DNA of 64,000 nt from Gemmatimonas sp. (GCA_031414535.1 JANNVQ010000030.1:32001-96000), one strand, 5' to 3'. Positions 16,441-62,056 are shown, counted from the first letter of the stretch. Numbers and translations are program-made. Notes: generated by a model not told the origin, from the sequence alone.

Positions 16441-16447
16441 CAGTTCC

Positions 16448-44994: not shown

Positions 44995-46119
44995 TCAAGG
45001 GAGTCGCGCCCGCTCCTCAAAACGCGTGAAGTCCGCGCCGAGCACACGCAACGAGAGCTCGGCGCGGAGGGCGGCAGGAGGCAACTCCACTGCAAAGCGC
45101 GGCCCGTCGAGCCTCGCGCGACGTCCATTCACAAACAACTTGGCCCCGGGCGCTAACCCGAGAGCCCGCCCAACCAGCGTGTAGTTGTTCTCCACGCCTT
45201 CGAGCGTGAGGGTTGGGCAGTCCCGCTCACAGCCGGCCCAACGCGCGGTGTCTCGGAGCGCGCCAGCCGCGGACTCGGCCGCGGCATCAGCCCCCAGGAC
45301 AAGGTCCGCACCGGCCTCGTGCACCATGATGGGCGCGTCGAGCCGATACACAACCCGAGGCACCAGCGTGGAGAACAGCGCGAGGCCACGCGCAGCTCGC
45401 TCCTCCTCGAGCGATTCCACAAACGCCGCCGTCAACACCCCACTCTCGCCCGACGCAAACATGAGGGCAGTCGGTGCGCCCGGTGTAGCAAAGGCGGCGA
45501 GATCCTTCGTGGCTCGCAGCGCTGCGGGAGGTGCCGCCAGACGCTCGCGCACGTTGTGAAAGAAGCTTGAGGCCTCCGGAGCCTCCAGCACCACAAACAT
45601 CTGACGGGCCGGCAGGGTGATCATCCAGTTCGCCATTACCTCGTGGCGCAGGATGCGTGCCTCAAACGAGGCCGGCGGCCGCTCCCCCGCACTTCTCGGT
45701 GCAGGCGGCATCGGCAACGTGTCGGCGAGCACGAGGAAGCGCGGTCCGCCGAGCCCCCGAAAGTACAGCGCCACCAGATCATTCGGACCGGCACTTCGCT
45801 GCACCGAGTCGAGCGCGGCCATCAGCGCGGCGCGCGTAGCCGACGCGCCCACGAGTGTGTGCGCCTGCACCGAATAGAACGGCATCGCGAGTTGGCTCAT
45901 CGCGACGGCCACACGCACCGCGTCCTCCTCGGCACCTGCTTGGCGTAAGGCCGGGCTACCGTACTGCGCAATACCAATGGTGATCACATGGAGCTTGGGA
46001 CGCGTGTCGTTCAACGTGGGCCCGCTTAGATGCGACAATGGGGATGACGGCCGACAGCCCGTCATCCCCACAAGCCACAGCCCAACCAAGGCGCCTCGCA
46101 GCGCCTGCCACGGGATCAC
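44995..46119 (-). CDS. Caspase-fold (C14-like) lipoprotein lacking both catalytic residues
   Basis: GTG start overlaps the upstream stop. Lipobox MTGC. ITIGIAQY, DA..VA and ATR..L motifs, with LYFRGLG in place of F[AS]GHG and LEAP in place of DAC. Confidence 0.75.
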   Translation of the reverse strand: MIPWQALRGALVGLWLVGMTGCRPSSPLSHLSGPTLNDTRPKLHVITIGIAQYGSPALRQAGAEEDAVRVAVAMSQLAMPFYSVQAHTLVGASATRAALMAALDSVQRSAGPNDLVALYFRGLGGPRFLVLADTLPMPPAPRSAGERPPASFEARILRHEVMANWMITLPARQMFVVLEAPEASSFFHNVRERLAAPPAALRATKDLAAFATPGAPTALMFASGESGVLTAAFVESLEEERAARGLALFSTLVPRVVYRLDAPIMVHEAGADLVLGADAAAESAAGALRDTARWAGCERDCPTLTLEGVENNYTLVGRALGLAPGAKLFVNGRRARLDGPRFAVELPPAALRAELSLRVLGADFTRFEERARLP

Positions 46120-47561
46120 TGGAGGCGTGCGGCCAGCGGCGACCAATCGAAGATGGACAGCGACACGTACATCCGCGGCTTGCCATAGGTGTCCGTCGTG
46201 CTCAATTCGGAAGGATCGGCGAGTACGCTGCCCTCCGACAATCCCACGAGTTGGCGACTTCGCATCCATGCGGCCCCAACTCCAATCCGAAGGAAAGTCC
46301 GGCTCGCTGCAATGCCAACACCGAACGTCGGCGTGCTGCCAGCGCCAACGACGATCTCCGGGAGCCAGAACGCCGTACCATTGATATGCCGCTGATCGAG
46401 TACGCCATACGTGAATCCCAAGACGCCAGCGGCGCTGAAGCGTGCGTCGCTGGTGCCCGTGCGCGCCACCACCGTACTGGTACCACTCGTCGCGGTGCCC
46501 CAGCGCGGAAAGCGGGCGGTGGGTGCCGCGAGCCCACCAATGCTCAGCGCAGGTGAGATGAGGACACGCGGCTGCACCGTGACGGTCCACTCCACCTTCG
46601 GGAGGGTCGCGACGCGCGCGAGTTCCCGCTCGGAGCGTGGCAGTGCGGTGATGGTCATGCGCCGCGCGGAGCCCGCGCGCGCCGCGACGGTGTCAAGCGC
46701 GAGCGCGGAACAAGCGCCACCAACAATGCCGACCAACTGCTCAAGCTGATACGCGGAGGTCACGAGGGACTCGTAATCGTCAAGCATACGCGCCGCGCGC
46801 GATTTTTCGACGAGCGCGGAGTCGTACGTGGCCTGCCACGACTTGACGTCGCTGAAGGCTGGGCCCGCGAGTGCTTCCCCTAAAGCCGCTTGCGCACGTG
46901 CCGTCTCAAAGACGCTCGCCAAAAGATTCCGCGCGGTGGGCAAGCGGACCGGCGCATCATTCCCACACGACACGGGGACAGGTAGCAGCTCTTGCAATTC
47001 CACCGTCGCTTCTTCAGGCGCCACACCAAAACGCATGCGTTCAAGCGCATACAGCGTGGTCGTCTGCAACTGCTGAATCCCGGCGCGCCCCTGCACCGCT
47101 ACATCCACTCGGGCCGCCGCGAGACGAATCGCTGACGCCGCCTCGCTGAGGTCCCGACGATCTGACTCCGCCATTGCCGCCATCGCCTCAGCGGCAGCGG
47201 CATCGGAATCGCCGCCGCGCCCGCCGAGCGCTGCTGCTACCTTCTGCAGCTCTGGCATGTACGGGGCTGAACGAAGAATCAGCGACGTCACTGTTTCCAC
47301 TTCCGGCAAGGGCACGGCAGCCTGTGACGATTCAAAGCGATAAAGGGCCGTGTTAGACCCCACGACCCGGATCTCGACGGGCACCCCGCGTGGCACGCGT
47401 ATCGTCGGGTTGCGTCCGACGACGCTCGTGTCGCTGCGTCCGTTTACTGTGTAAATGAAGCGTGCGATGCCGCTCTTGTGATCTATCTCAACACGCCCGT
47501 GCCGCTCCTGCGCCGCCAGCGGCAGAGCCGCGGCGGCGAGGAGCATCAAAGCGAGCTTCAT
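46116..47561 (-). CDS. Exported hypothetical protein: helical middle, beta-strand-rich C-terminus
   Basis: Signal peptide MKLALMLLAAAALPLAA-Q. Operonic spacing with both neighbours. Confidence 0.75.
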   Translation of the reverse strand: MKLALMLLAAAALPLAAQERHGRVEIDHKSGIARFIYTVNGRSDTSVVGRNPTIRVPRGVPVEIRVVGSNTALYRFESSQAAVPLPEVETVTSLILRSAPYMPELQKVAAALGGRGGDSDAAAAEAMAAMAESDRRDLSEAASAIRLAAARVDVAVQGRAGIQQLQTTTLYALERMRFGVAPEEATVELQELLPVPVSCGNDAPVRLPTARNLLASVFETARAQAALGEALAGPAFSDVKSWQATYDSALVEKSRAARMLDDYESLVTSAYQLEQLVGIVGGACSALALDTVAARAGSARRMTITALPRSERELARVATLPKVEWTVTVQPRVLISPALSIGGLAAPTARFPRWGTATSGTSTVVARTGTSDARFSAAGVLGFTYGVLDQRHINGTAFWLPEIVVGAGSTPTFGVGIAASRTFLRIGVGAAWMRSRQLVGLSEGSVLADPSELSTTDTYGKPRMYVSLSIFDWSPLAARLQ

Positions 47562-47575
47562 GTCACACACGCGAA

Positions 47576-49456
47576 CTAATTCCGACCTGCGCCGACACCA
47601 ATCACGTTGCCGTTGTTCGCCACCACAATCAGCGACCACGAACCCTTATTCCAGCGGTGCACCGTGCCCTGACTACCCTGCTGCTGGAGCTCCGAGTTTC
47701 CGTGCGCCGCGGTCACGCTGGCGAAGGTGCTGCCCACGGTCACACCAGCAACGGCACCACCCTCGCGACGTTCAATGGCGAACAGCTTCACGAGGCCCTC
47801 TTCATCGAGCACGATGGAGAGACCGCGCGCCGGATACCGCCACACCGTGCCAGCGGCATCCTGGCCACCCTGTGGCTCACCGAGCGCCGCCACGATGCGC
47901 GAACGCGTGGCACCAAGCTCTACACCGTTCACGTTCGGTGCCGGTGAGGCCGTCGGTGGCGTGGACGGCGTCACGGCCGGAACCGCGCCGCCGGCCGCAC
48001 GGGCGATCTCCTGCGCCTCACGCGCCCAAGTCGAACGGCCGTCACGCTGGATGTAGCGCGTCACGTAGCGATTCGCTCCGTCACGGTCACCCATCGCCAG
48101 CGACACGCGGGCGAGGTTGAACAGCACCTGCGCCGGCACGGCCGTTCCCGAGGCCTGCTCGGCGCGCGTGAACGCGTCCTTGGCCTCGGCGTTCCGGTTG
48201 GCGAGGAAGTACACCACGCCAAGGTTGTTGAGCACGGCGGGATCACGCGGCGCACGAGTGGCCGCGAGGGTCGCCTTCTCAATGGCCGGCGCCGTCTCGC
48301 CATCGTACGCCTCAATGACGGCCAAGTTCGAGAGCGTGTACGGATGCGCGTCGCGCGTGAACAGTACGGTGAAGGCCTCGCGCGCCGGACGGCGAGCGGC
48401 AATGCCCTGACTCGGGTTCGAACCGCGGATGGCGCCCATGAAGCGCGCGTCATACGCGGGCAGCATTGGACGAAGCTTCAATTCGGACGGTTCAGAACCC
48501 GCCAGCCACTGCTGGGCCAACACCACCGCCCGTGCGTGCTGCGCGGCCGCCAACTGCGGGAACGCCGCGAGCACGCGGTCGAGCATGGCAATCGCGGTAT
48601 CCGGAAGTTCATTGGCCTGGATCAGCGCGATGGCGTCGTCGTAGTCGCGCTGCAGGAGCTTGAGTTGGCCGCGGGCGACTTCGAGCATCGCCACGCGCTC
48701 AGCAGCGCGCGGGTGACCGCCGGTCCACGTGATGCGATTGCGCCAACTGCGACTGTTGCGCTCGTCGCGGTCCATCGAATCAAAGAGATCGATGGCGTCC
48801 TGCACTTCGTAGCCGATGCGCAGGATGTACACGGCGCCTGCGCGGTCAGCCTCCAGCTCTTGGTCGCGCTCAAACCGCGTAGCCGCCATGAGGACGGAGT
48901 CGCGGACAACAGCGCCCATGGTCTGCGCTTGGCTCAAACGCCGCGTCATCTCCTGCCGGCGCTGCATAGTGCGATTCACGTTCTCCGTGTGGCCGAGCTC
49001 GAGATGCCCGAACTCGTGGCCAATGACGGCCGCCATGCAGCCCATGTAAGCTCGGCGCTTGGCCGTGGCGTCCGAGGGTGCCTTGGTGCTCGCGTACTCA
49101 TTGCAATACAACGAGAGACCCACGTTGATGAGCATACCGCCGCCAGGAATCGCCGCCGCATTGAGCGACGAGTCCATGATGATTTCCCACTTGAGCGGAT
49201 GCGTGTCGTAACTCACGGTGCGCTGCACCGCTTGGATGATGCCGCCAATGTCGGCGCGGCGCTGAGGGTCCGTGTCGCGCCCAAAGCGACGCACACGATC
49301 CGCGAGCACTTGGTCGGTGATGTCCCGCAGCTGCTGGTCGGACATCATGTTGTCCCGCGCCGAGAGGTTCTGCTGGGCCGAAACGGACGACGCCGCGATA
49401 CCCATCGCGACAAGGGCGCCAAGAGCGCGGCGCATCAAACTGTGTGTGCGTGACAT
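47576..49456 (-). CDS. Exported M48 family metalloprotease with TPR repeats and C-terminal domain
   Basis: NAAAIPGG, HEFGH, ELEAD..G and HP...ER motifs, plus TPR-like LNNLGVVYF and LFNLARV. Confidence 0.9.
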   Translation of the reverse strand: MSRTHSLMRRALGALVAMGIAASSVSAQQNLSARDNMMSDQQLRDITDQVLADRVRRFGRDTDPQRRADIGGIIQAVQRTVSYDTHPLKWEIIMDSSLNAAAIPGGGMLINVGLSLYCNEYASTKAPSDATAKRRAYMGCMAAVIGHEFGHLELGHTENVNRTMQRRQEMTRRLSQAQTMGAVVRDSVLMAATRFERDQELEADRAGAVYILRIGYEVQDAIDLFDSMDRDERNSRSWRNRITWTGGHPRAAERVAMLEVARGQLKLLQRDYDDAIALIQANELPDTAIAMLDRVLAAFPQLAAAQHARAVVLAQQWLAGSEPSELKLRPMLPAYDARFMGAIRGSNPSQGIAARRPAREAFTVLFTRDAHPYTLSNLAVIEAYDGETAPAIEKATLAATRAPRDPAVLNNLGVVYFLANRNAEAKDAFTRAEQASGTAVPAQVLFNLARVSLAMGDRDGANRYVTRYIQRDGRSTWAREAQEIARAAGGAVPAVTPSTPPTASPAPNVNGVELGATRSRIVAALGEPQGGQDAAGTVWRYPARGLSIVLDEEGLVKLFAIERREGGAVAGVTVGSTFASVTAAHGNSELQQQGSQGTVHRWNKGSWSLIVVANNGNVIGVGAGRN

Positions 49457-49500: not shown

Positions 49501-51804
49501 CTACGGCGCCGTGCTGCGAATGACGATACGGTCGAGCGACCAATTGAGCGGGGCCTGCGTGGTGGTGCCGCGTGTACGGTTACCGGTTCCACCCAAAAGC
49601 GTCGACAGCCCGCCTGCTGCTGCGCCACGGGTGGCCGAGCGCACGCCCGACCATTCGAAAGCCCATGGCTCGATAATCTCGTCTGAGGACAGAAGCAGGA
49701 AGGAGTCCACGCCGAAAGGCGCGCCCACCCCAAACTGGCTCTGCGGCCCAAGCGGGATGTTGGTGGGCCAGCGTCCGCTGGGCGCGCGCTCAAACGGCAC
49801 ACGATTCTCCACGTTGGCCGACTGCGGGTAGATGAGCGCCGAGTTGCCGTAGGAGTCAATCGCAAACACATAGATGCGACGACGCTCGATGCGCTCCGAG
49901 ACCGCGGCGGAGTCCGCGACGAGTTCAATCTCGTACTGCTCTCCGCCCACAAACGGACCTTCGGTACGCAGTGCGCCATCACGCACGCGGCGGAAGGCCA
50001 GGCGATACGGAAAGGTGCGACCGCCCGGAGGCGCCTCCAGCAGGAACCAGGACCTCACGCGTGCCAAAGTGAAGGCCTTATCGGCCAACTGCGAGACGAC
50101 GCGCTGTTCACCATCGGCCGCATTCAGCCACTCCGTGCGCAGCGGCAGTGGCGAGGTGTTGGCAATCGCCTCGGATGCCGTGGGTTGCACCAGTGCGTAC
50201 TGCACACCGTTGCCCGTCGTGCGTCCGACCAGTGCGTACGTCGCATTGCCAATCTCGTTCACGAGCTGCACCGAGCTTCCCGCGGGAAACGAGCCGGACA
50301 ACTGCGCGGCCACCGCCGCCGTGGGCGGAAGATTCAAGAAGAAGCGCACGGCGCTCGCACTCCCACGCAGGCGCGCCAACCGCTCACGCAACACGGCCGG
50401 CGTGATGCGGCGCGGCAAGGCGATGGCGGCCGCACCACTTGGCTTCAACTCCCAGCCTGCCGTGCCCCACTGCATCACCACGAAGGGCAGTGAATCCGTG
50501 GGCAGCGCCGCGAGATCGTCGAGCCATTCAATGCCATCTTCACCGCGCAGCTCACTGGCCGAATCCGCCACGGCCTGCAAGGCTGCCGCATCCGGACCAG
50601 CCGCGGCCACAAATAGCGTCACGCCCGCACTCGGCGCCGACACCCAGCGCTCCAGCACGAAGAGATCGCCCACCTGCACGCGCCCGGCGTCGCCGGTGGT
50701 CACGCGACCGCGCGTGCGACTGATGCCAAGCACCGTATCAACCGTGATGCGTACGCTCGAGTCGGCGCCGGTGGAAAGCTTGCGGAGCACGGCACCGCCG
50801 CGAATGCCCAACGCGGGGCCACCCTGCAACTCGACGCCGTTAAGGCCGATGCGCAACACGGCCACGGACGTCGTGCCATCGCCAGCCGCCGAGCCGCCAA
50901 AGAGCGGCCGCAACTGGCGCTCGCTCGTGGCGTCGAGCACCGGCTCTTGCGGCAAGCCATCCATCTGCATGCGCGCGCGCATGCGGCGGAACACGTTCAC
51001 CGCCGATTCGCCGGGCGGCACGTTGTTGAGCGTCTCGATGAGTGCCACGGTGAACACGCCGCGTGGCTCGCCGCTGGGCCCCGCGCGTTCAAGGGCCGAC
51101 TGGTAGTCTTGGGCAGCCGAGATCACCAGCGCACCACGACGGTCCGGTGACTCGTCCACGCCGAGGCCGGGATCGGCGGCGTCGCGCTCATCGATGGCCG
51201 CCCAACGCTCAACGGCTTGCGAGAGCCCTCCCCGTGTGATGGAACCCGAGTGGCAGGAATCGAAAATCAGAATGAGTTCGACGCCCTTGTCTAAGAACGG
51301 ATTAAACAAGCGCGCCAGTTCTTTGTCGCGAATATCGAAGGCACCGATGTTGGCATCAGCCACGACGATGGTTTGATCGAGCTTGCTCGGGCTATTGTTG
51401 AGCGTGTTGCGACGCTGCGATCCGTGGCCCGCGTAGTAGAACACCACGACGTCGCCGCGCTCGGATTTCGCCAGCAACTCGTTGACGGCCGCGACCACCG
51501 CCTCGCGCGTGGCTGCGGCGTCCGTGAGCAATTGTGTATTTTGCTGCGGAAAGCCAAAGCGACCCACCAAGAGATCGCGCATGGAGGTGGCATCGTTCAC
51601 GGCGCCATTGAGGTTCGTGATGCGGCGTGCGGTGGTAAACTGCGAGCCCGTGGGAGAACTCACTGCGTCGTAGCGATTGATGCCGACCGCGAGCGCGCGC
51701 TTGGTCTGCGCTTCAAGAAAGCTCGTCGCCAACAGGAAGAGCGCCGCAAGGAGCGTCGCGCGGCTGAGAGGCCTGCTGACTTGCTGAGCGAGAGAGACGA
51801 GCAC
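49501..51804 (-). CDS. Exported caspase-family (C14) protease with C-terminal DUF4384-like domain
   Basis: KRALAVGINRY, L.GAVNDA, YYAGHG (His 51424-51426), FDSCHSG (Cys 51253-51255) and GVFT.AL. Start uncertain (GTG 51804 or TTG 51846). Confidence 0.9.
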   Translation of the reverse strand: MLVSLAQQVSRPLSRATLLAALFLLATSFLEAQTKRALAVGINRYDAVSSPTGSQFTTARRITNLNGAVNDATSMRDLLVGRFGFPQQNTQLLTDAAATREAVVAAVNELLAKSERGDVVVFYYAGHGSQRRNTLNNSPSKLDQTIVVADANIGAFDIRDKELARLFNPFLDKGVELILIFDSCHSGSITRGGLSQAVERWAAIDERDAADPGLGVDESPDRRGALVISAAQDYQSALERAGPSGEPRGVFTVALIETLNNVPPGESAVNVFRRMRARMQMDGLPQEPVLDATSERQLRPLFGGSAAGDGTTSVAVLRIGLNGVELQGGPALGIRGGAVLRKLSTGADSSVRITVDTVLGISRTRGRVTTGDAGRVQVGDLFVLERWVSAPSAGVTLFVAAAGPDAAALQAVADSASELRGEDGIEWLDDLAALPTDSLPFVVMQWGTAGWELKPSGAAAIALPRRITPAVLRERLARLRGSASAVRFFLNLPPTAAVAAQLSGSFPAGSSVQLVNEIGNATYALVGRTTGNGVQYALVQPTASEAIANTSPLPLRTEWLNAADGEQRVVSQLADKAFTLARVRSWFLLEAPPGGRTFPYRLAFRRVRDGALRTEGPFVGGEQYEIELVADSAAVSERIERRRIYVFAIDSYGNSALIYPQSANVENRVPFERAPSGRWPTNIPLGPQSQFGVGAPFGVDSFLLLSSDEIIEPWAFEWSGVRSATRGAAAGGLSTLLGGTGNRTRGTTTQAPLNWSLDRIVIRSTAP

Positions 51805-52059
51805 GTTCGCGGAATGATGAGTGAAGTGGAGTGGCGCGCAGCGCAATCACGATCTCGCGGCTGTGCTACACCGCGAGTTCCTACGAGATCATTGCGTGAC
51901 CGGCGTCACCAAAGACGTAGGACATCAGGAACGAGTGGAACACTTAGAAGAAGCGGTGAATACAAGAGCCGCGCAACAGCACCACACCCATTGCGCATCA
52001 TGCCCGCCGCAATGCAACGTCCGTTGTCTGTAAATCTCCTCTCCAGTTGGAGCTCCGCA

Positions 52060-52545
52060 ATGCCCGCGTCCCATTCTCTGCTCGGTCGCCTCGTCATCGT
52101 GGTTGCCCTGATGGCGCTTGCCTCCCGCGCTGAGGCCCAAGCCGGCGAGCAATTGAAGGTCCGCGAGCGCGCCAACACCTCGCGTGGAGCACCGTCCGAT
52201 CCCTCCGAGGACGAGAACATCAAGACGGTGGGTGGCCTCAACGTCCGCGGCGAAATGGGAGAGCAAGCTCCTGACTCAAAGCGAGAGAACGGCGCCATGA
52301 GCCGCGGCTCCGCTAGCTGCAAGGTGCACTACGACAATCGCACCAGCTTGCACGTCGCCACCTACGCCGAGGGCATCTTCCGCGGCGACGTGGCGCCTTG
52401 GGGGGACCTGTATACATACGTAATCGGCGGCCAGACGCGCATCTACGCGCGCGCCGGCTTCACCGACGGCTCCGTCACCACCTGGGGCCCTCGCCTCGTG
52501 GAATGCCCAGCTGGCCGCGAGTTCCAGTGGATGCTGTACAACTAG
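52060..52545 (+). CDS. Small exported hypothetical protein, 161 aa
   Basis: GGAG RBS and signal peptide ending AEA-Q. Low-complexity N-terminal half and a beta-rich C-terminal domain with two Cys. Confidence 0.75.
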   Translation: MPASHSLLGRLVIVVALMALASRAEAQAGEQLKVRERANTSRGAPSDPSEDENIKTVGGLNVRGEMGEQAPDSKRENGAMSRGSASCKVHYDNRTSLHVATYAEGIFRGDVAPWGDLYTYVIGGQTRIYARAGFTDGSVTTWGPRLVECPAGREFQWMLYN

Positions 52546-52646: not shown

Positions 52647-55600
52647 ATGCGCTCGCTTCGCATCCTGTTGGTCGCCGTCGCCGCTTCGCTGGCACTCAGC
52701 GCCATCCCCGCCGACGCACAGACGGACAACCGCGCGGGGAGCCGCGGCGTGATCCCGCAGCGCAACACGCAACAGCGTGTCGTCGGCAAGCGCCGCGCCC
52801 TCATCGTGGGCGTGGATGAATACCAGGACCGCCGCATCCCGCAGCTGCGCTACGCCACGGTTGACGCGATGGCCTTTGTGGGCTGGCTGCGCTCACCCGC
52901 CTCCGCGGCGAGCATTGATACGATGGTCATTCTGCTCAACAAGGATGCCACCCGTGAGCGCGTGCTCGACACCTACCGTGAACTGGTCGCGCAGACGCAA
53001 GAGAACGACGAGATTATCTTCTACTTCGCCGGCCACGGCGGCGTACGCGAAGTGCACAATGCCGTGGAGGGCTATCTCTTTCCGCACGATGCGGACTCCT
53101 CCAACATCGCCCGCCGCGGCATCTCGCTCGACGACATCAATAAAGAAGTGAGCTACCTGCCCGGCCAGAGTCCGGTGCTGCTCATCCTCGACGCCTGCCG
53201 CTCGGGCAATCTCTTCGGCTCCAACCAAATGAGCCGCGCCGCCGCCAACCTCGGCCCTAACGTGCGGCGCATCGTCTCCAGCTCCGGCAACCAGGATTCG
53301 CAGGAAGGCGATCGCTGGGAAGGCCATGGCGCTTTCACCTACTTCCTATTGAATGGCCTCTACGGCATGGCGGATGCCGATCGGAGCGGCAACGTGACGC
53401 TCGCCGAGCTCGGGCTCTGGGTGGTTAGTCAGGTTTCGCTCGAAACCAACGATGCCCAAGTGCCCGAGGTGCAGCCCTTCGATCACAAGTGGGGCATCAC
53501 GGGCGTGGTCCCGAGCTTACGGGATTCCGTAGCAAGGCGAGTCGCGGCGCGGCCTGGTTCCTCAGGAGCCGGCCCGACGCGCGGCATCTCACCGCCAACG
53601 GCCCCGGCGCCCTCGCCTGCACCCACGCCGGCAACGACCCGTCCGGCCAATCGTCCGGCTCTCCGTCGGGGTGGCGTCATCAACGTGGGCGATCGCGTGG
53701 CTGGTGAGCTCGCCCTCACGTCGCCAACGCTCGGCGATTCCACGCGCTTCGATGTGTGGACGTTCAGCGGCAAGCGCGGAGATCGCATCGCCATCACGAT
53801 GCGCTCCTCGGCATTTGATCCGTATCTGATACTCACGCGGAACGTCGGTGGCTCCAACGAGAACGTCCGTCAAGATGACGATGGCGGCGGCGGCACGGAT
53901 GCGCGCGTGGCCGTGGAACTGCCCGCCGACGGCAACTACAGCATCGTGGCCAACGCCGTGGGCAAGGAAGCGCTTGGCGAGTACTCACTCGCGCTCGAGG
54001 CCGTTGATCGTGTCCAGATTGCCTTCCCGCAAGTCATCGCCAATGCCGCGCAGCACACCGCGATGCGTATCGGTTCTACTGTCAACGGCACGCTCACGCC
54101 GCAAAGCGCGCTACTCACCGACGGCTCGTCGTTTGACGCCTACACCTTTGAAGGCCGCGCCGGTGAGTCCATTGAGATCTCGATGGAGACCACGGATTTC
54201 GACGCATTCCTCGCGCTCGGCATCTTCGGGAGCGACTCGGTCGTGGCCAAGGATGACGACTCGGGCGAGAACAGCAACGCGCTCATCGTGGCACGTCTGC
54301 CGCGCACGGGGCGCTACGTTATTCTGGCCAACTCGTTTGGCCGCGATGCCGCCGGCACCTACTCGCTGGGCCTTCGTACCGGCCGGCCGACCCTGCCCAC
54401 CACGACAATCCTCGGGCGGACTGGGGGCACTCCGCCCATTCGTGTGGGCCAAACGGTCACAGGAGACCTTGGCCGCGCCACCGAAGCCATGCAGGACGCC
54501 TCTCCGTTCCAGGTTTGGTATTTCGAGGGCCGAGCCGGTCAGCGCATCACGGTGAACATGCGTTCGGCGGACTTCGACAACTTCCTCCACATCGGACGCG
54601 TTGGCGCCAAGGTCACACTCGGTAGTGATGACGATTCTGGTGGCGGCACGAATGCACGCGTGAGCGTCACGTTGCCCGAGAACGGGCTGTACGCCATCAT
54701 CGCCAACGCACTGCGGCCCAACGGCAGCGGGAGCTACACCCTCCACGTGCGCGAAGGCTCGGGTCCGGATTGGAGATCGATGACTAACAAGGATGTCCTC
54801 GCGGCGGCGGACTCGTTCCCGCGCATCCAGCTGGGTCAGAGCGTTCGCGGGCGCTTCAATGACTCGAGCCCGCTGCGTAACGACGAGTCCCCTTTTACTG
54901 GCTACGTCTTCGAGGGTCGTCGCGGCAATGTCTTTCAGATTGATATGGAAGCGGGCTTCGATGCCTTCCTCTCAGTAGGACGTGCGGGCACCGATTCCAT
55001 CATCGCCAACGATGACGATGGCGGCGACAGCACCAACGCCCGCCTCACGGTGACCTTGCCAGCCGACGGCCGCTATGTGGTGATTGCCAACTCCGTAGGC
55101 AAGGACGCGCGTGGGGAGTTCACGCTCCGGCTTTCTGCCGGCCGCGCTGCTGTTGGGCTGACGCAGATTCTTGCACGGAACCCGACGGCCACGCAGATGC
55201 TCCGCGCCGGCCAAACCGTGAGCGGGCGACTGTCCGATGCGGACCCCATCATGACCGACCGTAGCCCCTTTGCGACTTGGTTCTACGAAGGGCGCGCCGG
55301 TGAGCAAATCACGGTCACCATGCGCTCGACGGACTTCGACGCCTTCCTGCATCTCGGACAGCAAGGGCTCACCGAAGCGCTGGCCAACAACGACGATGCC
55401 GCAGAAGCCGGTGGCACCAACGCGCAGATCAGCATCACACTGCCGCGTGATGGTATGTACGTGATTGTCGCCAACATGTTGTCGTCAGGCAGTAGCGGCG
55501 CCTACACGCTCGAACTCGCGAGCCACAACGCGCCAGCTGGACCCACGAGCAGTCTCAGGCCGAGCACCGGCAAGGGCGCCCCGCGTCCGTCCGCAGGAGT

Positions 55601-56018
55601 AGCCCCTGCCGCAACCCCCCTAGCAATTCCCGCCGCGCTCGCCGTGCCCACCGACCCTAATCGCACGGTGCGAATCGGGCAGACCGTGAACGGCACGCTC
55701 GGCGCTTCAAGCACAACTCTCAGTGACAACTCCCCGTTCGAGGCTTGGTACATTGAGGGCCGCGCGGGCGATCGCATCACTATCACCATGCGCTCCAGCG
55801 ATTTTGACGCGTACGTACACATTGGCCGGCAGGGCGATCGGGCCGTCCTCGGCAACGACGACGACTCGGGCGGCAGCACCGATGCACAGCTCAGTGTGAC
55901 GCTGCCGGCTACCGGCACCTACGTGATTATCGCCAATACGTTCGCCGCTGGGGCCAGCGGCTCGTACCGACTCGAAGTCAGCGCGGCACGCGGCGCCGAT
56001 GAGAGCCTCCGCCAGTAG
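52647..56018 (+). CDS. Exported caspase-family (C14) protease with six PPC-like repeat domains
   Basis: Signal peptide, RALIVGVDEY, FAGHG (His 53034-53036), LDACRSG (Cys 53196-53198), HGAFT and ADADRSGNVTLAEL. Six ~110-aa modules of pattern F.G..G..I...M.S..FD...[ND]DD.G. Confidence 0.92.
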   Translation: MRSLRILLVAVAASLALSAIPADAQTDNRAGSRGVIPQRNTQQRVVGKRRALIVGVDEYQDRRIPQLRYATVDAMAFVGWLRSPASAASIDTMVILLNKDATRERVLDTYRELVAQTQENDEIIFYFAGHGGVREVHNAVEGYLFPHDADSSNIARRGISLDDINKEVSYLPGQSPVLLILDACRSGNLFGSNQMSRAAANLGPNVRRIVSSSGNQDSQEGDRWEGHGAFTYFLLNGLYGMADADRSGNVTLAELGLWVVSQVSLETNDAQVPEVQPFDHKWGITGVVPSLRDSVARRVAARPGSSGAGPTRGISPPTAPAPSPAPTPATTRPANRPALRRGGVINVGDRVAGELALTSPTLGDSTRFDVWTFSGKRGDRIAITMRSSAFDPYLILTRNVGGSNENVRQDDDGGGGTDARVAVELPADGNYSIVANAVGKEALGEYSLALEAVDRVQIAFPQVIANAAQHTAMRIGSTVNGTLTPQSALLTDGSSFDAYTFEGRAGESIEISMETTDFDAFLALGIFGSDSVVAKDDDSGENSNALIVARLPRTGRYVILANSFGRDAAGTYSLGLRTGRPTLPTTTILGRTGGTPPIRVGQTVTGDLGRATEAMQDASPFQVWYFEGRAGQRITVNMRSADFDNFLHIGRVGAKVTLGSDDDSGGGTNARVSVTLPENGLYAIIANALRPNGSGSYTLHVREGSGPDWRSMTNKDVLAAADSFPRIQLGQSVRGRFNDSSPLRNDESPFTGYVFEGRRGNVFQIDMEAGFDAFLSVGRAGTDSIIANDDDGGDSTNARLTVTLPADGRYVVIANSVGKDARGEFTLRLSAGRAAVGLTQILARNPTATQMLRAGQTVSGRLSDADPIMTDRSPFATWFYEGRAGEQITVTMRSTDFDAFLHLGQQGLTEALANNDDAAEAGGTNAQISITLPRDGMYVIVANMLSSGSSGAYTLELASHNAPAGPTSSLRPSTGKGAPRPSAGVAPAATPLAIPAALAVPTDPNRTVRIGQTVNGTLGASSTTLSDNSPFEAWYIEGRAGDRITITMRSSDFDAYVHIGRQGDRAVLGNDDDSGGSTDAQLSVTLPATGTYVIIANTFAAGASGSYRLEVSAARGADESLRQ

Positions 56019-56045: not shown

Positions 56046-56930
56046 ATGAAGACCGCGTTTGTCGTCCGCGCCGCTGCGGTTGCCGCACTCTCTTTGTCCG
56101 CAACCATCGCTCTCGGTGCCCAAGAAGTCGACAAGTCTAAGGCCGTTGATCGCGCACTCGCCGCGTTCAATGCCACGAGTTCTTTGCGCAGCGGTTCCTC
56201 CGATGCCGTCCGGCCCATCACCATCGGCGCTCGCCAGTCCTCGTCACTCGATGCCAGCGATCCCACGCTCGGCGACGGGTCGCACTTTGAAGCATGGTCA
56301 ATCGAACTCCGCGCCGGCCAGGCCGTGTCCGTCACCCTGCGCTCAAGCGAGTTCGACGCCATGCTCATGATGCTCCAACAGGACAACCCGGAAAACCGCG
56401 CCGAGAACGATGACTTTGAAGAAGGCTCGACTGATGCGCGTATCTCGTTCCGCGCGCCGGCCACGGCCACGTACATCATCGTCGCGAACTCCTACGAGGG
56501 CGGTCAGCGCGGCGCCTACACCATTGAGGTTTCGGCCGCGAACGGCGGCGGCAACAGCGGTGGTGGCGCGGTGGGTGACATGATGGCATCGTCCGGTAAC
56601 GTGATCACGATTGGCCAGACGATCAACGGAGAGCTCTCCAGCAGCGACCCGACGCTCACCGACGACTCGCATTACGACGAGTACACGTTTGAAGGCAACG
56701 CCGGGGATCGCATCGTCATCACGATGCGCAGCGGTGCCTTCGACACCTTTCTGAAGGTCCAAGACGCGGCCGGCAACGACGTCGGCTCCAACGACGACGC
56801 CTTCGAAGGCAGCACCGACTCGCAGGTGGTGGCGACGCTCTCCGCCCGTGGTCGGTTCACCATCGTGGCCAACTCGCTCGAGGCCGGCCAGACCGGCACC
56901 TACACCCTGACGCTTGAGCGCGGCCGCTAA
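56046..56930 (+). CDS. Exported protein with two PPC-like domains
   Basis: Signal peptide and two modules homologous to those of the upstream caspase. Confidence 0.85.
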   Translation: MKTAFVVRAAAVAALSLSATIALGAQEVDKSKAVDRALAAFNATSSLRSGSSDAVRPITIGARQSSSLDASDPTLGDGSHFEAWSIELRAGQAVSVTLRSSEFDAMLMMLQQDNPENRAENDDFEEGSTDARISFRAPATATYIIVANSYEGGQRGAYTIEVSAANGGGNSGGGAVGDMMASSGNVITIGQTINGELSSSDPTLTDDSHYDEYTFEGNAGDRIVITMRSGAFDTFLKVQDAAGNDVGSNDDAFEGSTDSQVVATLSARGRFTIVANSLEAGQTGTYTLTLERGR

Positions 56931-56972: not shown

Positions 56973-58241
56973 ATGTACACTCGCAACTTTGTCCGCGCTC
57001 TGGCGCTCGCGTCTCTCCTCTCCGGCGCGCCTGTCGCGCTCGAGGCGCAGGACGGCTGGAACCTTCCGATTGACCGCAACCGTATGATCCGCGGCGGCGA
57101 GACCAAGAGTTCCTCCCTCGACAGCGGCGACCGCGCGCTCGGCGACGGCTCGTTCTTCGAAGCTTGGTTCTTCGAGGGTCGCGCCGGGCAGCAGGTCACG
57201 ATCACCATGCGCTCCGGTGGCTTCGACACCTTCCTCGCCGTTGGCCGCCACAACGGCGATGTCATCGAGACCAACGATGACTACGAAGGAAGCGCCAGCA
57301 CCAACTCGCAGATTTCCATCGCGCTCCCGGCCGATGGCATGTACATGATTCGGGCCAACTCGCTCGAAGCCAGCAAGACGGGCGACTACACACTGTCGTT
57401 GGAAGGCGGCAGCGGCAGCGGCCCCGTCAGCACTGGCAAGGGCGGCAATACCACCAGCACCACGATGACCGCCGCACAGGTCTTCGGTATGCCTGTCAAC
57501 CGCTCGCGGATGCTGCAGTCCGCCCAGCAAGCCTCCGCGGCGCTCGACGCCAGTGACAACAAGCTCAGCGACGACTCGTACTTCGAGGTCTACTACGTGG
57601 AGCTTGCCGCCGGTCAGCAGGTGACCGTCACCATGCGCTCGGGGGCCTTTGATACCTACCTCTCGATTGCCGCTCAGGGCAGTTCCGAGGCCGCCGAGAG
57701 CAATGATGACATGGAGGAAGGCAACACCGACTCTCGGGTCAGCTTTACGGCCCCGTCGGCTGGGACCTACGTCATCATCGCCAATTCGCTCGAGGCAGGC
57801 GAAACCGGTGACTTCACCATCGTCGCCACAGTCTCCGGTGGCGCCAGCGTTGGCGGTATCGCCGGCGATATGATCGGCGCGAGTGGCAAGGGCTCGGCCC
57901 CCAGTAGTTCGCGGGTGCTGACGCTGGGCCAGACGGTTAGCTCTGAGCTTAGCGCGGATGACCAGAAGCTCGAGGACAACTCCTTCGTCGAGCTCTGGGT
58001 GTTTCAGGGCCAGGCCGGCTCCCGCGTGACCATCACGATGCGCTCGGGCGACTTTGACGCCTTCGTCATCGTGCGCGACGCGGCCGGCGAGGCCATCGGT
58101 AACGACGATGACTCCGGCGGCGGCACGGACGCGCAGGTCACGGTCACCATCCCCGCCAACGGGCGAATTGCCATCGTGGCCAACTCCCTGGGCGAGGGCG
58201 AAACCGGGCGCTACACCCTCCAGATTGTCCGGGCAAACTGA
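56973..58241 (+). CDS. Exported protein with three PPC-like domains
   Basis: Signal peptide and three MRS..FD...NDD...NS modules. Confidence 0.85.
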   Translation: MYTRNFVRALALASLLSGAPVALEAQDGWNLPIDRNRMIRGGETKSSSLDSGDRALGDGSFFEAWFFEGRAGQQVTITMRSGGFDTFLAVGRHNGDVIETNDDYEGSASTNSQISIALPADGMYMIRANSLEASKTGDYTLSLEGGSGSGPVSTGKGGNTTSTTMTAAQVFGMPVNRSRMLQSAQQASAALDASDNKLSDDSYFEVYYVELAAGQQVTVTMRSGAFDTYLSIAAQGSSEAAESNDDMEEGNTDSRVSFTAPSAGTYVIIANSLEAGETGDFTIVATVSGGASVGGIAGDMIGASGKGSAPSSSRVLTLGQTVSSELSADDQKLEDNSFVELWVFQGQAGSRVTITMRSGDFDAFVIVRDAAGEAIGNDDDSGGGTDAQVTVTIPANGRIAIVANSLGEGETGRYTLQIVRAN

Positions 58242-58319: not shown

Positions 58320-59015
58320 ATGCGTATTTCCTTCCCTCTACTTATGCTGGCGGCGGCCTCCCTTTCGGCCTGCGCCCCCCAAGGTCGAGCGGCGCAAGCT
58401 CCCGCGCCGCTCGACCCAGCTGCCCAAGTCCGCGCTGACTCCCTCCGCCTGCCGTACAACGAGGCGGACATCACCTTTATGACCGAGATGATTGGCCACC
58501 ACGCCCAGGCCATCCTCATCTCCCGCTGGGCACCGACGCACGGGGCCGACAGCTCTATTCGAATCCTCGCCGCACGCATCATCAACTCGCAGATGGACGA
58601 CATCGCGTTGATGCGTCGCTGGCTCGCCGACCGCAACAAGCCACTCCCGAGCGTCACACCGGCAGGGGTGTTCACGCCCGCTCCCGCCGACACCACCGGT
58701 GAGCATGATGGCCATGACATGGGCGATATGGCCCACGACCACTCGATGATGGCCGGAATGCTCACGCCGGCCCAACTGGTTGAACTCGACGCCGCCCGCG
58801 GCGAAGATTTCAGCATTCTGTTTTTGCAGCGCATGATCAACCATCACCGCGGTGCGGTCACGATGGTCCAGACGCTGATCCGCGACCGCGGCGCGATTGA
58901 CGAAACCGTGTTTCGCTTTGCAGCCGACGTCGAGGTGGACCAGTCCACTGAGATTCGGCGCATGCTCCAGATGTTGCTCGAACGGGGCGGCAATCCGCCC
59001 AGCCCGCCCCAGTGA
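58320..59015 (+). CDS. DUF305 (ferritin-like) lipoprotein
   Basis: Lipobox LSAC, MIGHHAQA, MINHHRGAV and a His/Met-rich loop. Confidence 0.9.
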   Translation: MRISFPLLMLAAASLSACAPQGRAAQAPAPLDPAAQVRADSLRLPYNEADITFMTEMIGHHAQAILISRWAPTHGADSSIRILAARIINSQMDDIALMRRWLADRNKPLPSVTPAGVFTPAPADTTGEHDGHDMGDMAHDHSMMAGMLTPAQLVELDAARGEDFSILFLQRMINHHRGAVTMVQTLIRDRGAIDETVFRFAADVEVDQSTEIRRMLQMLLERGGNPPSPPQ

Positions 59016-59056
59016 TTCTGCAGTTCCCGTTGCACCACCATCCGAAGAGGGTTCCA

Positions 59057-61072
59057 ATGAAGTCTCTGTTCCAGCGTACCGCGACAGGTACCGCGAGAGG
59101 TACCGCCATGGCCGCGCTCGTCGCCGTCGCGGCCTGCTCCCAGCCGGCGGTGGAAACCGCGCCCATGGCGCGCTCCACGCCGACCCCGCCTTCCTTTATG
59201 AACGACCCCCGCGTTGGGCTTTCGGCCGGTCTCTTTGACGCCGCCCAAGCCACCAGCGGCATGCGCGTCGTCGCCAGCGCCCGCTCGCCCGAAGGCCACC
59301 TCGGCATCACCAACTCCGACCTCGCCTTCACTGGCAACTATGTCATTCAAGGCAACTACGCCGGCCCGGTGATCTGGGACATCTCCAATCCTGCCAGCCC
59401 GACCGTTGTCGCGGCTGTGGCCTGCCCGGCCTCGCAGAACGACGTCTCCGTGTTCGCCAACCTGATGTTCCTCTCGGCCGAGGCCTTCAACGGCCGCACC
59501 GATTGCGGCACCCAGGCACCCACCGGCCAGTCCAACCCCGCTCGTTTCCGTGGCGTGCGTGTGTTCGACATCTCTGACATTCGTAACCCCAAGCTCGTGG
59601 CCGGCGTCCAGACCTGCCGCGGCTCGCACACGCACACCGTGGTCGAGAACCCGCGCGATCCGGCCAACGTCTACATCTACGTCTCGGGCTCCGCGCCCGT
59701 GCGTCCGAACTCGGAGCTCGAAGGCTGCATTGGCGATGCACCGTCGGCCAATCCGAACTCTTCGCTGATGAAGATCGAAATCATCCGGGTGCCGCTCGCC
59801 AACCCGGCGGCCGCGGCCATCGTGAACCGCGCGGCAATCTTCACAGGCCTCACGGCTCCGCCAGAGCATGGTGAGACCGCGGCTGACAAGGCCGTTGCCA
59901 TCGCCCGCGCCGACTCCGCCCGTGCCCGCGGCGGCTTCGTCGCCATCAACCCGCAGTCCGGCAGCCCGATTGTGCTCGGCGGCGGATTCGTCCGCACCCA
60001 GCTCGACTCCATCGTCCGCACTCGCGGCGGTTCAGGCGCGCCGACGGCCGCTGACTCCGCCACGCTCCGCGCTGGCATTCAGGGCATCATTGATCGCGTG
60101 TTCGGTTCCGGCCCCCAGCCGGGTGCCCCGGTTTCCTCAGGCTCACAGTGCCACGACATCACCGTGTATCCGCAGTTGGGACTCGCTGGTGGTGCCTGCG
60201 AAGGTCACGGCCTCCTGCTCGACATCAGCGATCCGGTGAACCCGGTGCGCCTTGATGCCGCCGCGGACTCCAACTTCGCCTACTGGCACTCGGCCACGTT
60301 CAGCAACGACGGCTCCAAGATTCTCTTCTCCGATGAATGGGGCGGTGGCGGCGCGCCGAAGTGCCGCGCGACGGACAACGCTGAATGGGGCGCAAACGCA
60401 ATCTTCCGCGTCGTGAACCGCAAGCTCGTGTTCGAGAGCTACTACAAAATCCCAACCGTCCAGAGCGCCACGGAAAACTGCGTCGCCCACAACGGGTCGC
60501 TCGTGCCGGTGCCGGGCCGCGACGTGATGGTGCAGTCCTGGTATCAGGGTGGCATCTCAGTGTTCGATTGGACCGACCCCAAGAAGCCGTTTGAGATTGC
60601 GTACTTCGACCGCGGTCCGGTGGACGCTAACCGTCCGGCGATGGGCGGCGCCTGGTCCACGTACTGGTACAACGGCCAGATCATCTCGTCCGAGATCGCT
60701 CGCGGTCTCGACGTTGCCGAACTGACGCCGACGCAGTTCCTCACGCAAAACGAGATTGACGCCGCCAAGACGGTGCGCTTCTCGCAGTTCAACGCGCAGG
60801 GCCAGCCGCAGCTCAACTGGCCGCCGAGCTTCGCCCTGGCCAAGGCCTTCTTGGATCAGTCGGAGCGCAACAAGTGCGTCACGGCCGCGCGCGCGGGCGA
60901 GATCCGCACGGCGATTGGCAACGCTGAGCGCGCCACCGGCTCGGCTCGTCAGCAGCAGTTGCAGGCGCTGGCCTCGCAGATGGGCAGCGACGCCCGCAGC
61001 AGCTGCGACAACAGCAAGAACAGCCAGCTGCAGCGTGCCCTGCAGAACCTCTCGCAGGTGACGATTTCGTAA
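59057..61072 (+). CDS. LVIVD-repeat beta-propeller lipoprotein
   Basis: Lipobox VAAC, NSDLAF, WDISNP, CRGSHTHT, CHDIT, YWHSATF and CVAHNG. Paired with the DUF305 gene. Confidence 0.85.
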   Translation: MKSLFQRTATGTARGTAMAALVAVAACSQPAVETAPMARSTPTPPSFMNDPRVGLSAGLFDAAQATSGMRVVASARSPEGHLGITNSDLAFTGNYVIQGNYAGPVIWDISNPASPTVVAAVACPASQNDVSVFANLMFLSAEAFNGRTDCGTQAPTGQSNPARFRGVRVFDISDIRNPKLVAGVQTCRGSHTHTVVENPRDPANVYIYVSGSAPVRPNSELEGCIGDAPSANPNSSLMKIEIIRVPLANPAAAAIVNRAAIFTGLTAPPEHGETAADKAVAIARADSARARGGFVAINPQSGSPIVLGGGFVRTQLDSIVRTRGGSGAPTAADSATLRAGIQGIIDRVFGSGPQPGAPVSSGSQCHDITVYPQLGLAGGACEGHGLLLDISDPVNPVRLDAAADSNFAYWHSATFSNDGSKILFSDEWGGGGAPKCRATDNAEWGANAIFRVVNRKLVFESYYKIPTVQSATENCVAHNGSLVPVPGRDVMVQSWYQGGISVFDWTDPKKPFEIAYFDRGPVDANRPAMGGAWSTYWYNGQIISSEIARGLDVAELTPTQFLTQNEIDAAKTVRFSQFNAQGQPQLNWPPSFALAKAFLDQSERNKCVTAARAGEIRTAIGNAERATGSARQQQLQALASQMGSDARSSCDNSKNSQLQRALQNLSQVTIS

Positions 61073-61099
61073 CTGCAGCACCGATGTTCCCGTAGTGAG

Positions 61100-61133
61100 C
61101 GACGCCCCCGGTGCTTATGCGCCGGGGGCGTCG
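61100..61133 (+). terminator. Intrinsic terminator-like hairpin
   Basis: CGACGCCCCCGGTGC-TTAT-GCGCCGGGGGCGTCG followed by TTGT. Confidence 0.7.
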
Positions 61134-61210
61134 TTGTGCTCATTCCCCGACTCGCGCAACAAGCGCGGAATTGAGTGATTGCTGACTACCCCCCCGATTT
61201 GGAGGTTTCC

Positions 61211-62056
61211 GTGCGCGTCGCCCGTTTCGTTGTCCCCGCCCTGCTCCTCATTGCCGCTCCCGCCGCGTCCCTGGGCGCCCAGCAGCGAGCCATGCCACTG
61301 GAAGCCGTGCTCTCGTTGCCGCTCGACGTCACGCGGATGATTGCGCCCGGCGAGACCAAGAGTGCCGCGCTCGCGGCCAGTGATGCGATGCTCAGCGACA
61401 GTTCACACTTTGGGCGTTGGCTCTTTGAGGGCAAGCGCGGGCAACGGGTGACCGTGACGCAGCGCTCCGCGACCTTCGACACCTTCCTACACGTAGGGAA
61501 GCAGGGTGCTAGCGAGGTCGCTGCGCAGAACGACGATGCCGAGGAGACAAACTCCGAGATTTCGTACACGCTCCCTGAGGACGGTGTGTACGTCATCATC
61601 GCTGGCTCATTCGCGCCGCGCGAGACGGGTGACTACACCCTAACGCTGGCCGTGCAGGATCCCCTGCCTGGCATGACGGGCCCTGTCACGCCCGTGACTG
61701 TGCTGCTCAGGGACGTGGACCCGATGCTCCGGGTGGGCCTCGACCGTCGCATGGGCTCGCAGCTCGATGCACGCGATGCGCGCATGGATGACTCGACGCA
61801 TTACGAGCTCTGGTACTTCACAGCCAACGCGGGCGACAACATCAGCGTGGCGCTCGAAAGCGCCGAGTTCTCCGGTGCCCTGTTCGTGGGACCACAAGGC
61901 GGTCATCGAGCGGAGGCTGGCGCCGTCGGATCACGACCGCAGGTCAATTTCACGGCACAGGCCAGCGGCACCTTCGTGATTGTCGTGAAGGGGAATGGGC
62001 TCAACGACCGGGGCAGCTACATGCTCGACATCGCGAGGAAGCCGCGTATCCCCTAG
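61211..62056 (+). CDS. Exported protein with two PPC-like domains
   Basis: GGAGG RBS before GTG and a signal peptide. The first module is close to that of 56973..58241 and the second is degenerate. Confidence 0.8.
   Translation: MRVARFVVPALLLIAAPAASLGAQQRAMPLEAVLSLPLDVTRMIAPGETKSAALAASDAMLSDSSHFGRWLFEGKRGQRVTVTQRSATFDTFLHVGKQGASEVAAQNDDAEETNSEISYTLPEDGVYVIIAGSFAPRETGDYTLTLAVQDPLPGMTGPVTPVTVLLRDVDPMLRVGLDRRMGSQLDARDARMDDSTHYELWYFTANAGDNISVALESAEFSGALFVGPQGGHRAEAGAVGSRPQVNFTAQASGTFVIVVKGNGLNDRGSYMLDIARKPRIP

Follow-up and report, generated by a model that had tools for sequence, protein, structure and literature searches.

Within a 64,000-nt stretch of a Gemmatimonas sp. genome (GCA_031414535.1, JANNVQ010000030.1:32001-96000; the whole stretch is called the window below), we analyzed the locus at positions 44995-62056, which encodes two caspase homologs with intact catalytic residues (A and F), a pseudocaspase (D), a zinc metalloprotease (B), a small partner protein (E), a protein of an unnamed family (C) and three proteins made of PPC modules (G, H and K). 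We hold with moderate confidence that the genes of this locus form a lineage-restricted cluster whose products carry out extracytoplasmic proteolysis. Its domains, the predicted export of its products and the recurrence of parts of its neighborhood in other genomes together make some functional coupling of this extracytoplasmic protease set likely. To our knowledge, work on bacterial caspase homologs has dealt almost exclusively with cytoplasmic proteases of cell death, defence or toxin-antitoxin systems. In this locus and in many others of the phylum, caspase homologs with export signals accompany binding-module proteins, a zinc protease, a small partner and sometimes a dead paralog.

The G+C content of 62-66% across the whole window makes long spurious open reading frames (ORFs) plentiful; genes were chosen by codon-position G+C (0.72-0.83 at third versus 0.50-0.55 at second positions in real frames) and by start-codon context. 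A reading made from the DNA alone (hereafter the sequence-only reading) had described two divergent, tightly spaced gene runs, and the gene models, spacing and Pfam domains bear this out. The leftward run comprises A, B, C and D, and the rightward run E, F, G, H, I, J and K, the two being separated by a divergent 255-bp intergenic region (51805-52059). The domains, and the intact or lost catalytic residues, were likewise as first described, according to Pfam, the alignment of the catalytic dyads and the predicted fold of D. The earlier rightward gene list was right for E, F, G, H and K and had passed over I and J, which lie between H and K. Within-run spacing is operon-like (14-138 bp): the gaps are 44 bp between A and B and 14 bp between B and C, and the GTG start of D overlaps the stop codon of C by 4 bases (GTGA), the longer ORF of D having a 5′ extension of non-coding composition. 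The 255-bp region contained no convincing sigma-70 consensus site, and promoter and terminator consensus scans gave matches at or under the shuffled expectation. In the 3.7-Mb genome of origin, 2 of 3 C14 matches and 12 of 20 PPC matches fall within a roughly 11-kb stretch of the locus, so that the gene clustering here exceeds chance. For comparison we used a sample of 301 genomes of the phylum, which source names indicate to be Gemmatimonadota (coded G, with the genome of origin as G000), and a set of fetched loci (coded L), in which the gene caller was crude and starts are approximate; four further loci from Gemmatimonas or Gemmatimonadaceae metagenome-assembled genomes (MAGs) were reached through an alignment of D, and one metagenome contig through an alignment of E.

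The two caspase homologs score above the Pfam gathering cut-off for Peptidase_C14 (PF00656; 21.4 bits); the cut-offs for PPC (PF04151) and DUF4384 (PF14326) are 25.9 and 27 bits. Gene A (49501-51804, minus strand; 767 aa) matches Peptidase_C14 at 2.2e-22 with 80.3 bits, and alignment to our own C14 hidden Markov model (HMM), built from 15 C14 domains of the phylum and also used for the D match, places an intact dyad in the conserved G-H-G and D-x-C motifs (YYAGHG and FDSCHSG). It has 251 homologs at E<=1e-10, and the 120 listed span 91-100% of the query; the family consists of full-length proteins of about 750-830 aa, named just 'caspase family protein', from sources that include Gemmatimonadaceae, Acidobacteria-type and Bacteroidota MAGs. 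The C-terminal region of about 450 aa contains a DUF4384-like stretch. The DUF4384 assignment made from the sequence falls short in A itself (16 bits, E 0.013), whereas 9 of the 120 listed full-length homologs carry PF14326, and homology of the A C-terminus to DUF4384 is likely on these matches. Gene F (52647-56018, plus strand) combines Peptidase_C14 (1.3e-14, 54.9 bits; dyad intact in FYFAGHGG and LILDACR) with a Pro/Ala/Thr-rich linker and PPC modules (2.3e-33, 115.3 bits). The six modules first counted in F were confirmed by module alignment; Pfam scores five stretches, and the sixth is seen by alignment alone. Across the 65 C14-domain proteins of the fetched loci, His and Cys are retained in 61; the other four are D, its G255 ortholog, one Tyr/Ser protein and one Cys-to-Gly protein.

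The three PPC-only genes lie on the plus strand downstream of F, and Pfam supported the module numbers originally given for them: two in G (56046-56930; 1.3e-14, 55.2 bits, 2 stretches), three in H (56973-58241; 9.1e-27, 94.2 bits, 3 stretches) and two in K (61211-62056; 3.3e-11, 44.3 bits, 2 stretches), the second K module being divergent. The K modules are 19-52% identical to the others, and the 13 modules of F, G, H and K as a whole are 19-55% identical, which makes them old paralogs. In a tree of C14 domains, A and F fall in different clades, and F groups with its G255 counterpart and with the C14-TPR proteins of G101 and G042, of which the former adjoins an A ortholog and the latter a B ortholog. 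Because this clade mixes PPC-tailed and TPR-tailed proteins, the protease has been kept while the tail was swapped, with TPR in two other genera, and the C-terminal tail of F is an exchangeable binding array. We also considered F as a fusion of adjacent 'short C14' and 'PPC-only' genes, those in G224, G264, G279 and G167, and rejected it, since the tree puts the F caspase domain in another clade, with C14-TPR.

Gene B (47576-49456, minus strand) encodes a second type of protease, with matches to Peptidase_M48 (5.6e-13) and TPR_2 (5.5e-9), an HEFGH motif and a C-terminal extension. It fails the NCBIfam BepA equivalog model NF052400 (20.9 bits against a cut-off of 570) and is, to judge from its motifs, an intact-looking M48-TPR protease other than BepA.

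Gene D (44995-46119, minus strand; 374 aa) had been called a dead caspase, and its predicted fold and active-site substitutions bear out that call. Its confident AlphaFold (AF2) model, with a predicted local distance difference test (pLDDT) score of 88.3, combines a caspase domain with a C-terminal Ig-like sandwich; the best Foldseek matches were MALT1 caspase-Ig3 structures (8e-10), and legumain, caspase-7/-4/-1, gingipain and the bacterial GSU0716 were also returned, at probability 1.0. At the sequence level, Pfam gave D no match even at E<=10, and matches to C14 were obtained with the PADLOC 'caspase' model (3.3e-6) and our own C14 HMM (1e-7); BLASTP aligned D with A over the p20 His region at 4e-4. 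The 26 homologs (46-100% identity) are all unnamed, those with a taxonomic label being Gemmatimonadaceae; in 26 of 26 the catalytic His site is Leu, within Y-x-R-G-L, with R121-G122-L123 invariant, and the Cys site reads L-E/D-A-P ('LEAPE/LDAP'), with Pro in place of Cys. The more distant G255 ortholog has Ala at the His site. D thus has the features of a true pseudocaspase, in which the modeled caspase fold is kept and both catalytic residues are lost. When metagenomes were scanned with the D alignment, no relative came up; C and E, like D, had no Pfam match even at E<=10.

Gene E (52060-52545, plus strand; 161 aa) has 35 homologs in addition to the locus copies. It is built of a signal, a stretch of about 55 residues that contains Arg and Lys and is predicted to be disordered, and a 77-residue beta-sandwich with a Cys pair. 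The disordered stretch carries conserved motifs (R42-G43, D51-E52-N53-I54, K74 and R82); in the AF2 model residues 85-161 have pLDDT >93 and residues 29-84 score low, and the Cys pair is lost jointly in the two most distant copies. Foldseek gave no match at E<=0.001 and a PDB profile search nothing, and the best VIA-align hits (Z 8-9) were generic beta-sandwiches, namely AlgF domains, transthyretin-like proteins and a hydrazine dehydrogenase subunit. Across Pfam (E<=10), the PDB profile search, Foldseek and VIA-align, E matched no inhibitor or immunity family. Gene C (46116-47561, minus strand; 481 aa), a predicted exported accessory, belongs to an unnamed family of 179 representative clusters in which 0 of 44 members have a Pfam family. 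It has no Pfam or NCBIfam match, a PDB profile search gave helical-bundle noise only, and the ESM Atlas returned unnamed clusters only, PagL (0.75) offering a weak lead. Distant homologs of C are not beside caspases.

Export was called with a heuristic of our own, whose criteria are a positive n-region, a hydrophobic core 9 or more residues long, and either a lipobox or small residues at -3/-1. With the starts chosen here, all 11 products A-K are positive, including A from its GTG start at 51804. The sequence-only reading had given every product a signal peptide or lipobox; signal-like N-termini stand for 11 of 11, with the lipobox fitting D (MTGC), I and J only and the other products resembling ordinary Sec signals. 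Across the families, positives numbered 48 of 60 for A, 38 of 39 for E, 33 of 44 for C and 14 of 26 for D, many of the negatives being visibly truncated within the signal, and 49 of the 65 C14 proteins of the phylum loci were positive. Among controls, 5 of 25 were positive, four of them CHAT-TPR proteins with convincing signals; cytoplasmic enzymes gave 1 of 20. Since the heuristic is permissive, we consider export of A-K from the cytoplasm likely rather than proven. The phylum also holds large TPR-CHAT proteins (980-1600 aa) beside C14 clusters or E (L008:4482-10363, L010:10556-15358, L014:2584-7395 and L024:6666-9605), and as convincing signal-like N-termini are present in four of five such proteins, exported CHAT proteases are apparently common in it. 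In one C14 clade, from L018, L019, L020 and L021 (three proteins of about 1170 aa, the fourth of 689 aa), the caspase domain begins at residue 10 and there is no signal-like N-terminus, so cytoplasmic-type and predicted exported C14 proteins coexist in the phylum.

C14 domains are present in 52 of the 301 genomes. Full-length A-type proteins were found in four (G000, G255, G101, G283), B in four (G000, G255, G042, G283), C in four and E in five (G000, G255, G101, G283, G168), four of these five also having an A-type gene. The full gene order F,E / A,B,C,D,YbjQ recurs in G255, from the same genus, at amino acid identities of 78% for A, 70% for B, 67% for F, 64% for E, 58% for C, 45% for H and 41% for D; G and K were not found at this locus. 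The order is F,E / A,B,C,D in L046 and A,B,C,D in L045; in L044 it is F,E / A,B,D with C absent, and in L048 F,E / A,B is followed directly by YbjQ, with C and D absent. As relatives lose C, D, G or K and keep E, F, A and B, the latter four form the core and the former are accessories. The sequence-only reading had made conservation of the neighborhood in other genomes a test of its proposal, and the neighborhood recurs in part, as pairs of A with E, B with a clan-CD protease, A-type with F-type, and C14 with a PPC array; in its entirety the locus is confined to a Gemmatimonas-level clade.

E adjoins an A-type caspase gene in 9 of 10 loci (G000, G255, G101, G283, L044, L046, L048, L049 and L050). 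In the tenth, G168, it lies beside a predicted exported CHAT-TPR gene, which encodes another clan-CD protease. The order is E, A, F-type on one strand in G101 and E, A in G283; the A-type proteins of the metagenome contigs L049 and L050 are only 31-32% identical to A, yet E again adjoins their genes, twice in tandem in L049. B adjoins a C14 gene in three of its four genomes, among them G042 (order B, C14-TPR, C14). In the fourth, G283, it lies <=3 kb from CHAT-TPR and 12 kb from A: a CHASE2-cyclase gene and a pair of CHAT-TPR genes come after B, while E and A are 12 kb off. These G283 CHAT-TPR genes sit with a CHASE2-cyclase-DUF928 protein and the B homolog. Two or more C14 genes within 20 kb were found in at least 14 of the 52 C14-bearing genomes, a lower bound because the first-look filter missed known copies. 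PPC-array genes lie inside the C14 clusters of G122, G163, G224, G264, G168, G279 and G167, seven genomes that encode a long C14 protein, in many cases bearing DUF4384, and a PPC-C14 fusion, to which some add a short C14 and a PPC-only protein of 700-1170 aa. Loci that combine several caspase genes with PPC-array genes are common in the phylum.

These adjacencies bear on one alternative, that there is no system and that paralogous exported genes have been piled up by local duplication and chance, with the two runs uncoupled. Variable gene content fits this account, as do the age of the 13 PPC paralogs, the interleaving of the metal-related genes I and J and the richness of the whole window in exported proteins. 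Against it, the E/A, B/clan-CD and A-type/F-type adjacencies recur across genera and families with order and orientation rearranged, and the D-C overlap and the short within-run gaps also argue for linkage. We regard this explanation as very unlikely.

Patchy occurrence and small-partner linkage could also be read as a conflict system, in which A and/or F are exported caspase-type toxins or effectors against competitors, predators or phage, and E (perhaps D) is a periplasmic immunity protein or inhibitor. The patchy distribution, the differing gene content of close relatives and the swapping of targeting tails (PPC versus TPR) are compatible with this, as is the tie of a small, predicted exported gene to a protease gene, including its tandem duplication in L049. 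The PADLOC 'caspase' model matches A, D and F. There are also relevant precedents in the literature as excerpted: Sec-exported caspase-like toxin or processing domains in polymorphic toxin systems (PMC3482391) and the periplasmic TPR-CHAT protein DdvA, which controls a defence island (PMC11506125). On the other hand, the PADLOC match is to a generic caspase domain model only, and E fits no known inhibitor or immunity family. By Pfam and NCBIfam, the window showed no toxin or delivery domain, including type V and type VI secretion (T5SS/T6SS) or RHS delivery and C-terminal toxin domains, and no sigma/anti-sigma pair. On balance a conflict role appears rather improbable.

Under our preferred reading of a cluster for extracytoplasmic proteolysis, the products would act as follows. 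After Sec export, F and the free PPC proteins would be held by their PPC or TPR arrays to a common ligand, a protein or a polymer, located in the envelope or beyond the cell. Proteins bound there would be cut by A and F, with a probable preference for sites after basic residues like that of other orthocaspases, and B would trim or clear the products. E may be the cognate partner of A, its disordered Arg/Lys-rich half serving as a pseudo-substrate inhibitor, a chaperone or a first substrate of A, and D may be a non-catalytic paralog that binds substrate or an active caspase. A stronger version is an envelope caspase circuit, in which A or F would be checked by the pseudo-substrate E and switched by the membrane-anchored dead D, with PPC/TPR proteins as sensors and the M48 protease as a second step. 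This we think quite unlikely; if true, it would be a genuine extracytoplasmic proteolytic signaling cascade, built like eukaryotic ones. If coupling of the set is real, the locus offers tractable pairs (A/E, F/tail, B/caspases, and D with A or F) for probing the roles of caspase-type proteases outside the cytoplasm.

Several observations weigh against a dedicated system of this kind. No result has any two cluster proteins touching or cutting each other, and the domain of E resembles generic beta-sandwiches only. The cluster is sporadic, the other four sampled genomes of the genus lacking any A-type, B, C or E match. The losses of C in L044 and of C and D in L048, together with G and K not being found at the G255 locus, mean that the proposed 'regulator' and 'substrates' are dispensable. 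The export heuristic was positive for 21 of the 35 other window genes when every start in the first 60 codons was tried, many of these 21 being true envelope proteins. In addition, several such loci are flanked by genes for peptidases and for peptide or amino-acid functions, a pattern compatible with simple nutrient scavenging. The sequence-only reading had named a cascade with an assigned regulator, adaptors and substrates; we found no evidence for it. Close relatives in which A, B, E and F are retained can lack C, D and two of the three PPC-only genes. Of the broader proposal of a cell-envelope proteolytic signaling or assembly system, extracytoplasmic coupling survives as likely, through predicted export and recurrence, and the assignment of roles does not.

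Nutrient scavenging is a serious rival. It would make A, F and B secreted degradative enzymes whose PPC arrays bind insoluble environmental protein, with the PPC-only proteins aiding binding and no signaling involved. PPC domains bind insoluble protein in secreted collagenases and vibriolysins, and PPC is by name and usage (Pfam description) a domain of secreted peptidases. A 991-aa Peptidase_M14 carboxypeptidase, predicted to be exported, is encoded at 39177-42152 (minus strand), 3 kb past D, and with an amino-acid permease it stands 3-6 kb from the locus. A full-length, 61% identical M14 adjoins a TPR-C14 and C14-DUF4384 pair in the class-level relative G279 (L017:10446-13460); as a speculation, M14 could trim basic C-termini left by Arg/Lys-specific caspase-type cuts. 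Gamma-glutamyltranspeptidase (L012, L029), M28 (L028) and M20 (L031) genes flank other C14/PPC clusters, and the window sequence is present in freshwater-sediment metagenome runs (five DNA runs from two studies, with no RNA run listed), an origin that scavenging would suit. Bulk digestion would not lead one to expect a conserved dead caspase family of 26 members with an invariant former active site, or a dedicated E at 9 of 10 loci. Caspase-family peptidases are in general narrow-specificity processing enzymes, the rarity of B, E and A-type genes (4-5 of 301 genomes) is unlike that of general digestive enzymes, and M14 is not retained in the genus-level synteny. We therefore rate scavenging as unlikely, while giving it more weight than the other alternatives; if it alone applied, the locus would be an ordinary secreted-protease cluster with unusual enzymes.

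The genes between H and K probably stand apart from the protease set. Gene I (58320-59015, plus strand) encodes a DUF305/CopM-like lipoprotein (Pfam DUF305 1.5e-38; NCBIfam CopM 5e-22, under cut-off) that is retained after H in G255 and probably serves metal homeostasis rather than the protease set. Gene J (59057-61072, plus strand) encodes an LVIVD beta-propeller or choice-of-anchor-B-like lipoprotein (Pfam LVIVD 1.2e-4; NCBIfam choice_anch_B 9e-18, under cut-off) with a 77% identical ortholog in G255, and it is probably unrelated to the set. Metal-related genes ring and split the cluster: I, J, YbjQ (44506-44973, putatively heavy-metal-binding) and a ZIP transporter (62728-63507). In every relative seen, YbjQ is the gene after D, or the one after B if D is missing, and the C14/PPC cluster of G168 comes after genes for a copper-type P-ATPase and an M28 peptidase. 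Between DUF808 and YbjQ lies a 281-aa ORF (43635-44480, minus strand) with a good lipobox (LALTLSAC) and no family match, for which tblastn found no relative in any fetched locus. Farther off, the window contains a glycan-use cluster at 4151-22233 (two GH3, GH16, an MFS sugar transporter, a ROK regulator, a TonB-dependent receptor with CarboxypepD_reg, and TonB-C/Plug proteins) and, at 751-4434, a 1227-aa ORF without a Pfam match.

Elsewhere in the genome of origin, the third C14 gene lies on contig C17 (L025:6279-17086) and encodes an 870-aa protein with C14 at its C-terminus. It is followed by a 1081-aa Big_2+PPC protein, two DUF4384-only proteins (286 and 309 aa) and a 1040-aa AAA_16/BTAD/Trans_reg_C regulator, so that the domain vocabulary of the main locus is found there spread over separate genes; one further PPC match of the genome, beyond the 12 counted above, adjoins this C14 gene. 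Other C14 arrangements in the phylum include five tandem genes fused to FGE-sulfatase, peptidoglycan-binding, Sel1 and glucodextranase-B-like domains in G008 (L032:2-10406), and two tandem C14-FGE-sulfatase genes in G078 (L033:7941-12100).

Individual components resemble known proteins to different degrees. In E. coli, BepA (YfgC) is a periplasmic M48 protease with a TPR domain, and B shares its order of an M48 HEXXH domain followed by TPR, as well as a predicted signal peptide; B differs in its extra C-terminal domain, in its low score against the BepA model and in being found only beside clan-CD protease genes (4 of 301 genomes), not as a housekeeping gene. AprI/Inh of serralysin operons and staphostatins are inhibitors encoded beside secreted proteases. 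E is likewise small, predicted to be exported and protease-adjacent, with an extended N-terminus before a small beta domain, but it has no sequence match or convincing fold match to any inhibitor family. Gingipains are secreted clan-CD proteases. The D model shares with the MALT1 paracaspase a caspase domain followed by Ig3 (the caspase domain alone aligns with 3v4o_A at a template modeling score of 0.66); identity is 10-13%, and MALT1 is active, cytoplasmic and eukaryotic, whereas D has no catalytic residues and is predicted to be exported. The likeness of D to MALT1 is one of modeled fold and domain order only. A pairing of D with A or F, as proposed above, would resemble the action of cFLIP on caspase-8.

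The sequence-only reading held that the best-characterized caspase-fold systems act in the cytoplasm, which is incomplete, since exported caspase-fold proteins have precedents. DdvA, as described in excerpts of its report (PMC11506125), has a periplasmic TPR-CHAT domain of solved structure, although its protease activity is itself unproven. Like the present locus, it places a caspase-superfamily domain outside the cytoplasm, joined to a repeat array, and has been proposed to act in envelope proteolytic signaling. Its domain is CHAT and not C14, however, and it is a membrane anti-sigma factor with an extracytoplasmic function (ECF) sigma partner, whereas the proteins here are predicted to be soluble or lipid-anchored; no CHAT, zinc-anti-sigma or sigma-70 family match was found among the scanned window genes. 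Excerpts of a 2012 survey (Asplund-Samuelsson et al., PMC3501461) already report possible N-terminal signal peptides and extracellular partner domains on bacterial metacaspases, and metacaspases in operons with other peptidases, and Sec-exported caspase-like domains feature in the excerpted account of polymorphic toxins (PMC3482391). No PPC fusion or E-like partner is described in the excerpts of the orthocaspase surveys PMC6426788 and PMC3501461, and no paper joining 'pre-peptidase C-terminal' with 'metacaspase' was found in the open-access literature. The claim that no system of this architecture has been described held in that literature as well: the gene set itself was not found in print.

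For the pairing of dead and active proteases, a parallel is the Csp germination system of Clostridioides difficile, which, according to the abstracts of PMC7200643 and PMC4619724, encodes the active CspB together with the pseudoproteases CspA and CspC and acts in extracytoplasmic proteolytic signaling. The Csp proteins are of the subtilisin family, from spore-forming Firmicutes, and unrelated in sequence; in our locus the coupling of dead and active members is putative, and D is dispensable in a close relative. Closer in sequence are the orthocaspases and pseudo-orthocaspases: A and F are C14 proteins with a His-Cys dyad, D has the predicted C14 fold without it, and DUF4384 is a known companion domain of bacterial orthocaspases. 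In the excerpted text of Klemencic et al. (2019, PMC6426788), pseudo-orthocaspases with Tyr/Ser, Tyr/Ala, Phe/Ser or Gln/Cys are described, mainly from Alphaproteobacteria and Cyanobacteria, and are stated to be absent from phototrophic Gemmatimonadetes. D differs from these in its Leu/Pro pair, its restriction to Gemmatimonadaceae-type sequences, its Ig-like tail and its escape from Pfam. D thus adds a pseudocaspase family with Leu/Pro for His/Cys, undetected by Pfam and unlike the dyad variants named in the excerpts of that survey.

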